From an uncultured Bacilli bacterium (GTDB taxonomy: Bacteria; Bacillota_I; Bacilli_A; RF39; UBA660), in contig CANRPE010000002.1 of assembly GCA_947632405.1 (NCBI GenBank), positions 1,254 to 65,253 of the forward strand: DNA of 64,000 nucleotides, written 5' to 3'. A program made the position numbers and the translations under genes. A model generated the notes under the pieces. The model saw only the letters and a list, made by a program, of their open reading frames with translations, was not told the origin of the DNA and searched no databases. Below are positions 39,285 to 48,141 of the stretch, in pieces; within the stretch, counting starts at the first letter, position 1; each line of letters opens with the position of its first letter.

Positions 39285-42257
39285 TTAATTATTATTGAAT
39301 CCAATTCTTGTATTAACTACAGCATCAGTAGTATAAGTTGGATCATAGAAAATATTACTTTTATAGTAGTATAAACCTTCTACTTTTTCTGGACTTTCAT
39401 TTTTATTATTACCTTGATATGAAATATATCCATATTTTTTTGCATAAGAGCGTAAATTTTTAATATTTTCTTTTGTTAAATGTACTGTATAATCAGCAGT
39501 ACCACTATAAACTGAATCTGGATTACCTTTTGCTTCTTCTTGAAGTGTTTCAGCATAATTTCCAGGATCAATTCCATAACTTGTTCCTGCTGCAACTTTA
39601 TCTGTAGCTGCACTTGTCCAGTTAAATCCAACTTCTCTTTGATTTATTCCATCAGAAGCTGGGAATAGTAATTGTTGTTCTACTGGTCTAAATACTGTGT
39701 TACATAATGCTGTACTATTTTCATTACTACATTCATTTTTTTCTTCGGTAGTTGGTGGTGGCGTTGTATTATCGCCAGAATCACCAGGATCATCTGGATC
39801 AACTTGATTACTTAAAGCATAGAAGCAATTTAAATCAATATTCCAACTATATTTACCAAAGTTTCTAATATTTGTTTTTATATTATCTGGTCTTTCTACT
39901 TTAATAGTATTTATATCTCCCTTATTATTGATTTTCCAATTCCACCATTGTTCATTTACTGGTTCAAAGTCATAGCCAGTACAATAGTAATTTTCTTTTT
40001 CTCTAGTATTATCTTTATTTACTTTATCTTCATGATAATATCTCTTAGCACTTTTTAAATCAATCCATGTACCAGGGAAAGTAATAGTAGTTTTATAATG
40101 TTGCCAATATTCTGGATTATCTTTTCCATAACAAATTCCATTAATACCATTAAGTGCACATAAAGCATCTTTAGAAGTTTCTTTATCAGAATCTAATGGA
40201 ATAAACATTTTTACATCTCCAGTTGGAGTTAAACATGTATTATTAGCAGATGTTTTATTTTGTGATGACCAACTAGATTGATCATCTGGATTTTTATCTT
40301 TCATTACATCATTATCAACTTGCATATCAAATGTTGCTTCTTCTTCATTTGTACATTTAGCACTAGCTGTACATTCAGATAATTCTGCACTAATTTTTTC
40401 AAATTTTTCAACATAGTATTTTCTAAGATTTTCACTACTATCTTGACATTCACCTGCTGTTGTTTTTAAGAATCCACAAGTTTCATAACATTTATAACTT
40501 CTTGAACGTTGTCTTTTTATACCACCATCATCGATTATATAAGATCTTGCTTCACCATAACCATTTAATCCATTATTTACTCCATAGAATGATTGAATAG
40601 TTTTTAATGCTACAGTTTGATTACGGAAATAATATGGTGATGATCTTTTTATAGATTCAATCCAGTTATCCCCAGAAGGTGAACCTGTTGTTTTTGCTAC
40701 ACTAGAATCTGGTTTCCAAATATAATCGAACCAATCAATATTTCCATTATATTTTTGATAAACTCCTAATGGTTCTTCTTGTTTTAATTTATAAAATGCT
40801 TTTGCACATGCTTCTGCATTGCTTTTAATTTGAGCATTAGTTTTACATCCATCGATATTATAATATGGATCATCTTTATTTTCTTTTGCAAGTTTTTTAA
40901 CATTACTAAATGTTGTTGTTGCAGCAACTTTTTTCGTTGTTGTATTATTTTTTTCATATACTTTTTTATAACAAGAATTTATACAACTTTGTGAATATTT
41001 ACCATTATCACAAGCTTGAATACAAGTATCAAAGTCTTGGCTTGGTCCTGCTTGAGTTTCATTTTCATTTCCACTACAAATTGGAGTATAACTACAAATT
41101 GAAGGAGGTGTAGGCCATTTTATATCGCCTTTTGGTTGAGTTTTACATGTAACTTTACTTTTTACTGTTACTTTATATTGGAAACAAAGTCCTGCTTTTG
41201 TTGCAACAGGTGGATCATATGTAACTTGAATTTGTTCTTGACATGTAACACTACATGCATTATTATTTACTTCTTCGTTTTCAGTATAATATTTAGCTGT
41301 TTCCTCTGTAGTTTGTTCTTTCTTACAAGATAAAGTTTCTACACTAATTCCCTTACTATTATAAGTTAATTTCTTATAACCCTCATTTTCAATTTCTGCT
41401 TTAGCTTTATCAAATTCAGAATTATCTTTTTGACTTGATACAAAATCTAAATAAACTTTATATGCTTTTAAAGATGCTTTTCTTACTTTTTCAATATCTT
41501 TAGCTGTAATCTCAAAAGTTGATGAGTAACCTTGATAACAATATGGAAAACTAGATTTCATTTGAGCATTATATTTATCAACATCTTCTTGGCTTGATAA
41601 ATAAACATCACCATCTTTTTCAAGCTTTCCTTCTAGCATAGCTTGGCATTCTTTGCCTTCTTTTGAATTAGGATCTACTGCTATACTAACCTTTGCATCA
41701 TCTGCAAATTTTTGAGAAATATATGCTGCTGTATTATTAATCTGAAGTTTACCACTATTATCAATTGCTACATTTCCTGCTTTACATGTTGTAGTAGCTG
41801 ATTTTCCATCTTTATCTTTATAAGTAACTTTTAAAGCTTTTCCATCAGTATTAACAATTTTTCCATTATCATTCTTAACAGGCTCAGCAATTAAGAAAAT
41901 TGCATTACCAGGACCTACACTAATTTCTAAATCATTACCCCCTGTATAATTAACAGTTATTGGAGTTGCTTGACTTCCTAATACTAAGGAATAATCTGCT
42001 GATGTAGAGTCATAATCAATAGCATATTTAATTTTCCATTTTCCTTCTTTAGAATGAATCTTAATTTTATAATTTTGTTTATCTACTGTTAACATTTTAT
42101 CTGTATATAAAGCATTTTCACAAGCTTTATCTGCTAATGATTTTGTACCTGTTGCACTTTGCTTTGTTTTAGCATTTACTTCTGTTACCATTAAAAATAC
42201 AGAAAATACTAATACTAGTATTAAACATTTACCAACCCTTTTACTAAAACTATGCAT
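39285..42257 (-). CDS. Giant secreted cysteine-rich protein (990 aa), paralog B
   Basis: Sec signal ending VNA|K. About 30 Cys by hand count. The conserved core is AGLCFQYKVTVKS ... QAGPSQDFDTCIQACDNGKYSQSCINSCYKKVY. It has a Pro/Asp-rich linker and a C-terminus NTRIGFNNN. There is no LPXTG and no C-terminal TM. Confidence 0.8.
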   Translation of the reverse strand: MHSFSKRVGKCLILVLVFSVFLMVTEVNAKTKQSATGTKSLADKACENALYTDKMLTVDKQNYKIKIHSKEGKWKIKYAIDYDSTSADYSLVLGSQATPITVNYTGGNDLEISVGPGNAIFLIAEPVKNDNGKIVNTDGKALKVTYKDKDGKSATTTCKAGNVAIDNSGKLQINNTAAYISQKFADDAKVSIAVDPNSKEGKECQAMLEGKLEKDGDVYLSSQEDVDKYNAQMKSSFPYCYQGYSSTFEITAKDIEKVRKASLKAYKVYLDFVSSQKDNSEFDKAKAEIENEGYKKLTYNSKGISVETLSCKKEQTTEETAKYYTENEEVNNNACSVTCQEQIQVTYDPPVATKAGLCFQYKVTVKSKVTCKTQPKGDIKWPTPPSICSYTPICSGNENETQAGPSQDFDTCIQACDNGKYSQSCINSCYKKVYEKNNTTTKKVAATTTFSNVKKLAKENKDDPYYNIDGCKTNAQIKSNAEACAKAFYKLKQEEPLGVYQKYNGNIDWFDYIWKPDSSVAKTTGSPSGDNWIESIKRSSPYYFRNQTVALKTIQSFYGVNNGLNGYGEARSYIIDDGGIKRQRSRSYKCYETCGFLKTTAGECQDSSENLRKYYVEKFEKISAELSECTASAKCTNEEEATFDMQVDNDVMKDKNPDDQSSWSSQNKTSANNTCLTPTGDVKMFIPLDSDKETSKDALCALNGINGICYGKDNPEYWQHYKTTITFPGTWIDLKSAKRYYHEDKVNKDNTREKENYYCTGYDFEPVNEQWWNWKINNKGDINTIKVERPDNIKTNIRNFGKYSWNIDLNCFYALSNQVDPDDPGDSGDNTTPPPTTEEKNECSNENSTALCNTVFRPVEQQLLFPASDGINQREVGFNWTSAATDKVAAGTSYGIDPGNYAETLQEEAKGNPDSVYSGTADYTVHLTKENIKNLRSYAKKYGYISYQGNNKNESPEKVEGLYYYKSNIFYDPTYTTDAVVNTRIGFNNN

Positions 42258-47900: not shown

Positions 47901-48141
47901 TTCCTTTACATGCCATACTAATTGTTCTACTAGTTACATTATTACTACTAATACTAGTATTGCGATCATATGCACTTGCTGTAATCGATATACCTAAATA
48001 ACTTTTACATACTGAATCATAATTATCAGGATCACTTTTGCTAACTGCATACCCATCAGCCAAAATAGTTTTAGGAAACAAAAGAAGAACTAATATGATA
48101 TTAATATATATAATTTGAAATAATATTTTATTAGTTTTCAT
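44986..48141 (-). CDS. Giant secreted cysteine-rich protein (1051 aa), paralog A
   Basis: Sec signal ending ILA|D. Over its C-terminal ~650 aa it shares the conserved core and Cys pattern of the 990-aa protein. It has the linker PPSNPPSAPPTNPPNNPPPGGG and the C-terminus NTRLGYNNN. Confidence 0.8.
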   Translation of the reverse strand: MKTNKILFQIIYINIILVLLLFPKTILADGYAVSKSDPDNYDSVCKSYLGISITASAYDRNTSISSNNVTSRTISMACKGRCRAHIYYAPYGNLDLLGSESIGEDDADIEDLVSTKKHTFNDSYTWSLPAGYEALIIVVSLNERECAKKDKDSGACIEYKYPKKETDTKYCAGYNDKGKCIDKKPIKCNKGNFNSDDILEEGISQVEITGNGASLFVQNPKESGLVSNIRSRYNSDYGEACNNAYNGIYDGSSTKYNVKKEDLEEYRNNYYRKVLDYCEQKDVPFNLKPSQIKKISNSLLRVFYSRKQQEKESSKTLDYINKTIDRYKNTIEKSHIYNDTSKLNPKLNCDFSKTSSEYLYTSKTKTVKAELSSGSVKVCKIRCYEHLTVKYDPPATVKAGLCFQYKVTVKSESECGMEDDFDLSKVTVQNMCSPSPICSNTTSHTQAGPNENFDSCVQDCDNGQYSQACINSCYKKVYSSKTSTTKTSSKINENVTVNKGISYLNKQPNGIVKKLADDETEYKNYQNEDNNKNCNTNSIISYVNNNNQTKLSECAEYFFNAKAMYPKGSYNKNRTKWVHSSDVNNDGATNKGTSNIPMQIARSSPFYLRSIEETKSLLIALVGYTDNVYKKYNISSEGFKRQYSTRYVCNEVCSFTGCKSSDICTNNEFSNVTAKDLQALEDALNECQVSTSCKSEPTETEFTIDISANNDGKNENASQKGTTSLDSVYGYGDIDEDGDGNADMFIPENGTSNSNTGILGLCYDKRPTPQYQTTITYPGTYINYKSAKRVYTKTYDDSYYYKKGYFCTPYGLEDVNEKYWWATVNNDNAYLANFTPTYNINATLGSDTKSFGKYNWKINFNCFYSAYHELTPPSNPPSAPPTNPPNNPPPGGGDDECNSENSTRYCNVRFRVVDSNTLFPDKNGKPISDESNLPFNWTNRAKDLAAQNNSTLQSRGYALNPGEYKQTLEQRNPNSVFNGPASSAAYHIKINKNNINEIKNYTRNYGYNSYQGSYTKVDGVDGFYYYQSNLLDNSTYVESISRNTRLGYNNN

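Follow-up and report, generated by a model that had tools for sequence, protein, structure and literature searches.

The locus analyzed here raises the question of what two very large, cysteine-rich and apparently secreted proteins contribute to an uncultured gut bacterium of the RF39 group of Bacilli, given that Firmicutes exclude cysteine from exported proteins (PMC2823432), and of how such proteins stay attached to the cell. Both are encoded in a 64,000-nucleotide stretch of DNA (contig CANRPE010000002.1 of assembly GCA_947632405.1; hereinafter, the window), and both had been singled out in a first-pass annotation of that stretch as giant secreted paralogs. Analysis of the family and of its genomic context provides a partial answer: the giant is a core component of a conserved gene cluster that encodes a Tad-like pilus and a type IV secretion system (T4SS). 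We read the giant, with a probability of about 0.5, as a contact or adhesin subunit of this hybrid Tad/T4SS apparatus, secreted via Sec, stabilised by disulfides, docked on an Ig-like partner and attached via a sortase and/or an unpaired cysteine.

Both open reading frames (ORFs) are real and encode proteins of 990 and 1051 amino acids (aa) that share 32% identity over ~906 columns (BLASTP, E 2e-99). The N-terminal ~330 aa, described in the first-pass annotation as divergent, are strongly diverged, but the alignment starts already at aa 158 of the 990-aa giant and aa 188 of the 1051-aa giant, so that the N-termini appear to be still weakly homologous. The shared C-terminal motifs with matching cysteines that had been quoted (DPP..KAGLCFQYKVTVKS, QAGP..FD.C.Q.CDNG.YSQ.CINSCYKKVY, FGKY.W.I..NCFY and EC.NENST..CN) are all present, and the Pro-rich linker proposed for each giant could be located at aa 820-839 (39741..39800) and aa 871-894 (45460..45531), respectively. 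The estimate of roughly 30 cysteines in the shorter protein is exact: it contains 30 (3.0%), or 29 once the signal peptide is removed, and the longer protein contains 34 (3.2%), compared with 1.0% on average for all other window ORFs of at least 100 aa. Both N-termini, as read from the sequence, have the form of a Sec signal peptide, in which a basic n-region precedes a hydrophobic h-region and an A-x-A-like site (...MVTEVNA followed by KTKQ and ...PKTILA followed by DGYA); the alanine at position -1 of the former, A29, is at least 90% conserved family-wide. As the first-pass annotation had it, there is no LPXTG motif, no anchor domain according to Pfam or NCBIfam, and no C-terminal transmembrane (TM) segment with a basic tail in either giant, the sequences ending with ...GFNNN and ...GYNNN. 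Given the conserved signal-peptide form and the lack of TM or anchor domains, the giants are predicted to be secreted. Their parts are as follows.

39285..42257, minus strand: 990-aa cysteine-rich giant, the core copy, sortase-adjacent in every genome (ORF, family, synteny in 75 loci, AlphaFold2)
42171..42257, minus strand: predicted signal peptide, aa 1-29, MHSFSKRVGKCLILVLVFSVFLMVTEVNA (sequence form, A29, low model confidence)
41358..42170, minus strand: variable N-terminal region, aa 30-300, with a beta-sandwich and a helical bundle (conservation profile, secondary structure of the model)
39801..41357, minus strand: conserved cysteine-rich core, aa 301-819 (conservation profile, alignment)
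40971..41024, minus strand: twin CX3C helix-loop-helix, aa 412-429, CIQACDNGKYSQSCINSC (invariant C412, C416, C425 and C429)
40122..40154, minus strand: LNGINGICYGK loop with C709, codon 40131..40133 (G707 and C709 invariant)
39981..39983 and 39825..39827, minus strand: codons of C759 and C811, the other candidates for the unpaired cysteine
39741..39800, minus strand: Pro/Asp-rich linker, aa 820-839 (sequence; predicted local distance difference test score, pLDDT, <50)
39288..39740, minus strand: C-terminal domain, aa 840-990, ending with ...NTRIGFNNN (tail 39288..39320; model, sequence)
44986..48141, minus strand: 1051-aa paralog, one half of an extra module together with a 585-aa Ig-like protein (ORF, BLASTP)

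Nothing exceeded the noise in searches of Pfam, NCBIfam and PHROGs with both giants (Phage_tail_2, for instance, scored a sub-threshold 15 bits), and sequence and profile searches of the PDB produced no match. An AlphaFold2 model of the 990-aa giant, with 76 family members as input, reaches a mean pLDDT of 79.7 and a predicted template modeling score of 0.61. It consists of an N-terminal beta-sandwich, a helical bundle, long beta-hairpins, the twin-CX3C helical hairpin and further mixed domains, followed by a disordered Pro-rich linker and an alpha/beta C-terminal domain. A Foldseek search with the full-length model against the PDB and BFVD returned nothing at E <=0.001; the best matches (E 0.07-0.09, TM-score <0.1), mostly alignments of generic beta-sandwich regions to glycoside hydrolase family 2 enzymes, were discarded. 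The family, which had not been recognised from the sequence, has no characterised homologue in any of these sequence, profile or fold searches.

The relatives themselves are numerous. A word-indexed search identified 79 family clusters at 90% identity, all unnamed or "hypothetical", and an exhaustive profile search identified 637 clusters at 50% identity, 487 of them with E <=1e-30; essentially all members are 850-1250 aa long. By sequence criteria, then, the giants represent a sizeable undescribed family that is conserved over its full length, and one of this size (637 clusters) with neither a Pfam model nor a structural relative merits attention. Searches of the literature on RF39 in combination with pili, T4SS or adhesins, and of that on DUF5411, yielded no description of it. 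The family is new, and the kind of protein that it most likely represents, a pilus- or T4SS-associated surface protein, is already known.

Where, then, are the relatives encoded? A scan of one genome per species detected 188 relatives, from which 75 distinct loci were kept. The hosts are labelled as gut metagenome-assembled genomes of uncultured Bacilli/Tenericutes, Candidatus Onthousia, "Mycoplasma sp. CAG:877" and "Clostridium sp. CAG:417", and one host replicon is a 1.52-Mb circular chromosome; we read these hosts as RF39-like Bacilli with reduced genomes. The RF39 bacteria are predicted to be mostly walled, and sortases have been noted as lacking only in sister orders (PMC10868615); the window also encodes CotJB/CotJC and peptidoglycan enzymes. 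The gene order in the 75 loci is near-invariant: a DUF4352 membrane protein, a ~600-aa Ig-like protein, the sortase, the cysteine-rich giant, DUF5411, CpaB and CpaF are followed by two polytopic proteins, a 52-aa Flp-like pilin, a TadE-like protein and a 328-aa protein, and these by two VirB2-like proteins, a VirB6-like protein and a split VirB3/4. Genes for a U32 peptidase, a PedC-like protein and SpoU lie upstream of the cluster in many loci. The giant is flanked on either side by gaps or overlaps of 0-25 nt. Thus, the tie to CpaF and sortase neighbours that was suspected in the first-pass annotation is real and nearly universal across the 75 loci. No tblastn match that would point to a mobile-element origin was found in plasmid or phage collections. 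The cluster is a vertically inherited chromosomal supercluster that unites a Tad-like system with a monoderm T4SS, and the giant is one of its core, normally single-copy genes, the 990-aa gene being the core copy.

The cysteines show a distinct pattern of conservation. In the alignment of 76 sequences, 21 cysteines are invariant and a further 3 reach at least 90% conservation, so that the cysteines seen in the two paralogs are indeed conserved among orthologues. The invariant cysteines of the core are C311, C335, C339, C358, C371, C388, C394, C412, C416, C425, C429, C471, C590, C594, C629, C635, C709, C759 and C811. Those of the twin CX3C motif sit on helices 407-417 and 423-434 of the model, where C412 would pair with C429, and C416 with C425. 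Mature proteins have between 25 and 43 cysteines, and in 197 of the 206 members the number is odd, a parity that is robust to the choice of the cut site (196-198 of 206 for cuts at residues 25-28). The variable cysteines are coupled: position 675 with 700 (phi 0.92), and the cysteine of a GCNN motif near the C-terminus with one downstream (phi 0.91). Such gain and loss in pairs is the signature expected of disulfides, and a bias toward even cysteine counts has served as a predictor of disulfide bonding. When counted by segment, the cysteines are even in number in 202 of 206 members for aa 30-300 (a region with 0-12 cysteines across the family), in 200 for aa 301-650 and in 180 for aa 716 to the end; for aa 651-715, they are odd in number in 183. 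The segment parity implies one conserved unpaired cysteine among C709, C759 and C811, a feature that is absent from the first-pass annotation. Our best guess is C709, which is located in an invariant NG-x-G-x-C-Y-G loop where the confidence of the model is lower. Taken together, these counts suggest that the cysteines of the giant come and go pairwise around one conserved unpaired cysteine, most likely C709. The 1051-aa paralog is a rare member with an even count, owing to an extra cysteine near position 658/664. The co-loss of conserved cysteines is noisy and suggests only 46-158, 204-240, 471-484 and 388-604 as pairs.

These patterns make real extracellular disulfides plausible, the more so because a gene for a PedC-like protein is a frequent neighbour and other exported proteins of the cluster have few cysteines, mostly in even numbers (the Ig-like partner has 4 and the TadE-like protein 2 or 4). 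The family is a clear exception to the exclusion of cysteine from Firmicute exoproteins. The candidate oxidoreductase is the following.

52073..52600, minus strand: 175-aa membrane-anchored PedC-like protein with a predicted thioredoxin fold and a CX6C motif (Pfam PF20207, 5.6e-37)

This domain is DUF6568 in Pfam and "PedC-like" in the precomputed annotation. The 175-aa protein has an N-terminal TM segment, its sequence resembles the thioredoxin fold, and it weakly matches 1ZMA, a bacteriocin transport accessory protein. Among the 55 loci with enough flanking sequence, 32 carry a PedC-like relative within 3 kb upstream of the cluster. In one large clade (L019-L054), the gene is divergently oriented, 30-100 bp from the first cluster gene, and encodes a protein of roughly 140 aa with a DsbA-like CSHC motif. 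The one relative of this type that was translated in full (L078, 51-467, minus strand; motif CSAC) has a lipoprotein-type signal ending with LTGC. In the clade of the window, the protein is TM-anchored and a conserved C-T-[AS]-S-x3-C (CX6C) replaces CXXC; L075 carries both types. PedC is a putative thiol-disulfide oxidoreductase that improves the potency of pediocin (PMC4919988), and the PedC-like protein is, on the strength of its sequence, a candidate disulfide oxidoreductase for the exoproteins of the cluster. The likeness to the PedC/Bta systems of class IIa bacteriocins lies in a membrane-anchored or lipoprotein PedC-like gene next to cysteine-containing export products (PMC4919988). The differences are that the clients there are 40-aa peptides whereas here they would be 1000-aa proteins with ~12 or more disulfides, and that CXXC is the motif there whereas the window copy has CX6C. 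An apparently dedicated oxidoreductase of this kind makes oxidative folding in monoderms amenable to experiment.

The gene immediately upstream of the giant is a sortase.

42250..43029, minus strand: membrane-anchored class-B-like sortase (Pfam Sortase, 7e-9)

In the PDB, it is most similar to class B sortases (C. perfringens, C. difficile and S. aureus SrtB), and the catalytic residues H105 and C209 are present in all 78 orthologs and R226 in 72 of the 78. The end of the sortase gene and the start of the giant overlap by 8 nt in the window (42250-42257, ATGCATAG), and an overlap of 8-23 nt is found in 75 of 77 junctions across species (by a start-codon heuristic), unlike the other junctions of the cluster, which are mostly short positive gaps. 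This conserved overlap argues for tight co-expression. A scan of all ORFs of the window and of 77 loci for proteins with a cell wall sorting signal (CWSS) found none anywhere. The giant resembles LPXTG/CWSS adhesins and pilus tip proteins in being a large secreted protein encoded beside a sortase with a His-Cys-Arg triad, and a surface or adhesive role is plausible here too. It differs from them by lacking an LPXTG/NPQTN-type motif and a C-terminal TM segment with a basic tail and by its richness in cysteine, which Firmicute exoproteins normally exclude (PMC2823432); no Ig-like pilin or thioester-domain fold of the kind known from sortase-pilus and thioester adhesins matched the giant in the Foldseek searches.

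Two C-termini were considered as non-canonical sortase signals, and both are poor candidates. That of the giants, NTR[IL]G[FY]NNN, had been described as invariant, which did not hold: NTRIGFNNN and NTRLGYNNN are limited to the two paralogs and their close relatives, and the conservation across the family is reduced to a G-x-N-N core, with a freely varying residue before the glycine. Furthermore, G-x-N-N was not found within the last 30 residues in 37 of the 83 tails derived from the loci and is often internal, in the form of GCNN followed by an extension of 10-30 aa that contains a cysteine; the x is a cysteine in 89 of 206 members, where it co-occurs with the downstream cysteine. With only GxNN kept, often internally and tied to a cysteine, this tail is unlikely to be a sorting signal. 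The Ig-like partner always ends exactly with G-x-G-T-x-x-[DNS]-P-Y-x-[IL]-x-[KD], which was examined as an NPxT-type sortase B signal and rejected: position 4 varies, and the motif is also present inside the protein (GDGSSSNPYILKG, aa 391-403). Hence neither the GxNN tail nor the [DN]PYx[IL] terminus of the partner appears to account for the substrate of the sortase, and a sortase with no recognisable substrate signal makes non-canonical sortase function in monoderms testable.

The partner itself is encoded upstream of the sortase in all loci, and a second copy accompanies the 1051-aa giant.

43042..44841, minus strand: 599-aa N-terminally anchored Ig-like partner (Pfam Bact_surface_Ig-like)
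48159..49916, minus strand: 585-aa Ig-like paralog, 51% identical to the 599-aa partner and paired with the 1051-aa giant

The AlphaFold2 model of the 599-aa protein (pLDDT 91.8) shows a helix at residues 2-51 and, after it, beta domains, among them the Ig-like domain of Pfam; this topology may recall that of large minor pilins. The Tad cluster of the TANB77 clade encodes a 621-aa single-TM protein with partial TadE/PilV similarity (PMC11680825). The top Foldseek match of the partner is an IgA peptidase of Thomasclavelia ramosa (279 columns, E 3.7e-5), presumably through non-catalytic domains. Four further loci (L009, L011, L013 and L015) also carry an extra pair of a 585-aa Ig-like protein and a cysteine-rich giant, and this co-duplication suggests that the two proteins act as a pair. 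The 144-bp gap at 44842-44985, between the extra module and the core genes, is the only one of notable size between any two genes of the 38822-51489 region and holds the best promoter-like match on the minus strand (44933..44906; TTGACA-16-TAAAAT with an extended TG), promoter-like sites overall not being enriched in the scan; accordingly, the extra 585-aa and 1051-aa genes and the core Ig-like, sortase and giant genes may be separate transcription units.

How might such a protein work? As the outermost, target-contacting subunit of the apparatus, either an adhesin or a specificity subunit, the giant would have a fold held together by ~12 conserved disulfides and additional lineage-specific pairs, which the neighbouring PedC-like oxidoreductase would introduce. 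The variable N-terminal 300 residues may engage the target surface, whereas the Ig-like partner is the most likely site at which the conserved cysteine-rich core and the C-terminal domain would bind to the machine; attachment could involve the translationally coupled class-B-like sortase, the single unpaired cysteine, or both. The extracellular disulfides, the adhesin role, the docking partner, the identity of the free cysteine and any covalent attachment are what we infer from the data.

Several observations weigh against this scheme. Neither the giant nor any other protein of the cluster carries a canonical, CWSS-like sorting signal, and the GxNN tail, being often internal and disulfide-tied (GCNN...C), argues against cleavage at that site. 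No extracellular protein of the cluster has a consistently odd cysteine count that would make it a partner for the free cysteine. No PedC-like gene was found within 3 kb upstream of 23 of the 55 loci, and in the anaerobic gut habitat oxidative folding is not a given. For the Ig-like partner, Foldseek yielded Ig-like and accessory domains and no pilins, so that a minor-pilin-like nature is suggested by the topology of its secondary structure; and neither Pfam nor NCBIfam gave a match for the Flp-like pilin or the putative platform proteins.

The rates of evolution bear directly on the choice between a contact subunit and a structural component. Median identity to the window protein across the loci is 28.7% for the giant, 38.3% for the Ig-like partner, 44.2% for the sortase, 53.7% for DUF5411, 60.6% for CpaB, 66-71% for the putative platform proteins and 79.8% for CpaF. 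Thus, the giant is the most divergent component of the cluster, with the N-terminal third as its least conserved part, and such fast divergence is easier to reconcile with an exposed subunit that contacts a target than with a channel scaffold. The same numbers make it unlikely that the giant is a wall-spanning conduit or stalk of the Tad/T4SS machine, a functional analogue of the secretin, of VirB9-10 or of the wall-spanning proteins of Gram-positive T4SSs, with disulfides that provide rigidity and a sortase that fixes it to peptidoglycan. Such a part would agree well with an always present, single-copy core gene among the machine genes, with the highly conserved, cysteine-rich core region and the coupled sortase, and with the necessary absence of diderm outer-membrane components from a monoderm. 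However, the 28.7% identity, against 60-80% for the machine components, is atypical of a channel scaffold, the N-terminal third is variable, the gene is duplicated together with that of the partner in some genomes, and there is no sorting signal for attachment to the wall.

The interpretation of the giant as a contact or adhesin subunit can be extended to the entire cluster. In this rather doubtful extension, RF39-like Bacilli would possess a hitherto unrecognised hybrid contact apparatus, composed of a Tad-like pilus, a relaxase-less T4SS and a dedicated oxidoreductase and sortase, with the role that type IV pili and T4SS have in epibiotic Patescibacteria. The giant would be its host-specificity determinant, covalently attached by new chemistry, that is, by a sortase that needs no canonical sorting signal or by a reactive cysteine (a thioester or an intermolecular disulfide) on a fold without known relatives. 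The nearest analogy at the system level is the combination of a relaxase-poor T4SS of the MPF-FATA (mating-pair formation) type and type IV pili in epibiotic Patescibacteria. T4SS and type IV pili have been implicated in the epibiotic lifestyle of Saccharibacteria (PMC12102498, PMC10633639), and the two groups of organisms are alike in reduced genomes, vertically inherited chromosomal T4SS of the monoderm type, VirB2-like pilins and pili. They differ in that Patescibacteria are another phylum than Bacillota and in that the pilus and T4SS genes are fused here into one cluster; in a study of the T4SS and pili of Patescibacteria, adhesins such as PrgB were not detected in the dataset, and sortase is not mentioned. 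By analogy, cell contact may be a requirement for gut Bacilli with reduced genomes as well. The RF39-like Bacilli, uncultured and with small genomes, are prevalent in the gut microbiota of humans and animals, and a lineage-wide, inherited fusion of pilus and T4SS genes points to an obligatory cell-contact function. As the fastest-evolving core protein, the giant is an obvious candidate for the specificity determinant and a handle for finding partner cells or host ligands.

At the level of the protein, the closest parallels to a contact or adhesin subunit are tip adhesins. PilY1/PilC proteins have ~1000-1100 aa, a Sec signal rather than a pilin leader, a location among pilus and minor-pilin-like genes, a variable N-terminal part and a conserved docking C-terminus. 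The giant is comparable in size, in the Sec signal and in the combination of a variable N-terminal with a conserved C-terminal part. Its gene lies between that of the 599-aa protein with the N-terminal helix and those of DUF5411, CpaB and CpaF, a setting that may likewise be one of pilus genes. There is, however, no similarity in sequence or fold: the PilY1 beta-propeller was not detected in the giant, and the PilY1/PilC C-terminal domain gave no Pfam match up to E 0.1 and none in the PDB sequence or Foldseek searches. The system of the giant also differs, being Tad-like plus T4SS in a monoderm, disulfide-rich and sortase-coupled. By this analogy, the giant resembles PilY1/PilC and the tip adhesins of sortase pili in its possible mode of action. 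It belongs to neither family, since the features by which each is defined were tested for and not found. In gut Clostridia (Roseburia, Ruminococcus and Eubacterium), predicted secretion-related operons with CpaF, PilC and DUF5411 have been reported (PMC9523054); they share with the present cluster CpaF, DUF5411 and a large adhesin- or invasion-type surface protein, which is, however, internalin-like, and the relevant part of that report describes neither a cysteine-rich giant nor a fusion with a T4SS (PMC9523054).

It appears quite improbable that the giant is instead a secreted enzyme or toxin, for example one that attacks the wall or membrane of neighbours with the unpaired cysteine as nucleophile. 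The invariant unpaired cysteine in a Gly-rich conserved loop would suit a nucleophile, and the protein is secreted; it is also linked to a T4SS, a type of machine that other bacteria use to deliver effectors. The Sec signal peptide, however, implies export independent of the T4SS; no histidine is invariant or nearly so in the 76-sequence alignment, which makes a Cys-His protease-type site unlikely; neither Pfam nor Foldseek identified a hydrolase, toxin or other enzyme fold; and length and architecture are conserved over most of the ~1000 residues, unlike in modular toxins.

Highly unlikely, in our assessment, is a covalent adhesin in which the unpaired cysteine forms an internal thioester with Q402 or Q423, like that of thioester-domain adhesins on sortase pili, or in which a reactive thiol cross-links a target or a second copy of the protein in a homodimer. 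The odd cysteine count in 96% of the members and the invariance of both Q402 and Q423 are compatible with such chemistry, and the LCFQ sequence around C358 loosely resembles [YF]C-hydrophobic-[DENQ], which we take to be the motif of thioester domains (TED). Structures of thioester domains are available in the PDB, and Foldseek found no match to the TED fold there at E <=0.001; moreover, the cysteine parity points to C709, C759 or C811, away from C358. VirB2-like protein a of the T4SS was considered as a disulfide partner for the free cysteine and found unconvincing, one of its cysteines being apparently at the cytoplasmic end of TM2. Finally, a spore-coat, S-layer or general wall protein with a merely historical position in the cluster can be set aside as most improbable: CotJB and CotJC are encoded in the window and spore coats can be cysteine-rich, but the giant carries a Sec signal peptide, was duplicated along with the Ig-like partner and keeps an invariant operon position in 75 species, with the same tight spacing on both sides.

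The remaining genes of the cluster comprise the first gene, upstream of the Ig-like proteins, and the Tad-like block downstream of the giant.

49927..51489, minus strand: 520-aa polytopic membrane protein with a DUF4352 domain, the first gene of the cluster (Pfam, synteny)
33211..39268, minus strand: the Tad-like pilus genes as a block
38822-39268, minus strand: DUF5411 (Pfam/NCBIfam)
37997-38800, minus strand: CpaB/RcpC (RcpC 30.4 bits, cutoff 28.8; TIGR03177 1e-11, below its cutoff)
36689-37963, minus strand: CpaF ATPase (T2SSE 4e-27)
35781-36674 and 34999-35781, minus strand: two polytopic putative platform proteins (position, size, TM segments, synteny)
34752-34910, minus strand: 52-aa Flp-like pilin, MKAATGELNLTVIT... 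(position, size, TM segment, synteny)
34231-34716, minus strand: TadE-like 161-aa protein (position, size, TM segment, synteny)
33211-34197, minus strand: 328-aa protein (position, size, TM segment, synteny)

The N-terminus of the Flp-like pilin, MK[AE]A[TS]GELN[LM]TV[IV]T, is extremely conserved in about 57 species and implies a 6-residue leader with a glutamate straight after the glycine. This pattern differs from the classical Flp pattern, G/xxxxEY, and from that of type IVa pilins, G/FxxxE. The scanned ORFs of the window yielded no prepilin (A24) peptidase.

The T4SS genes adjoin the Tad-like block and, in nearly all loci, are contiguous with it.

17960..29384, minus strand: T4SS gene set, within which are also encoded VirD4 (T4SS-DNA_transf 4e-55), a glucosaminidase+CHAP hydrolase and a 434-aa protein with a weak match to the ribbon-helix-helix type
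29046-29384 (a) and 28505-28954, minus strand: VirB2-like proteins
26532-28490, minus strand: VirB6-like protein
26181-26501, 25649-26215 and 23862-25652, minus strand: VirB3/VirB4, apparently split into three ORFs (TraG P-loop/AAA_10)
21459-22145, minus strand: lipoprotein with a C-terminal TM segment

The best family matches of the T4SS proteins are proteins of Mycoplasma integrative and conjugative elements, and the N-terminal fragment of VirB4 matches VirB4_plasma. No relaxase family was matched among the ORFs from 16973 to 29384, although a very divergent relaxase could escape such a search. Of 74 orthologs of VirB2-like protein a, 63 contain 3 cysteines: two close to the extracellular termini, one at either end (DDAC... 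and ...AECW), and the third at the start of TM2; possibly, the terminal cysteines link the N- and C-termini by a disulfide, as a non-peptide analogue of pilin cyclisation.

Three genes at 29472-33120 on the minus strand separate the Tad-like part from the T4SS part; they encode a polytopic membrane protein (500 aa), an FAD amine-oxidoreductase-like protein (521 aa) and an N-terminally anchored protein (180 aa). In most other loci, the 328-aa gene directly precedes the VirB2-like genes, and relatives of the 500-aa and 521-aa proteins are encoded elsewhere in L003-L006 and L055; these genes look like a lineage-specific insertion. Farther away in the window, a T-box leader (122.9 bits; 12962-13198, minus strand) lies upstream of the ORF at 11161-12630, the CotJB and CotJC (Mn-catalase-like) spore-coat genes occupy 4406-5502 on the minus strand, and a lone tRNA-His gene (5631-5706) is located on the plus strand, opposite to nearly all other genes.

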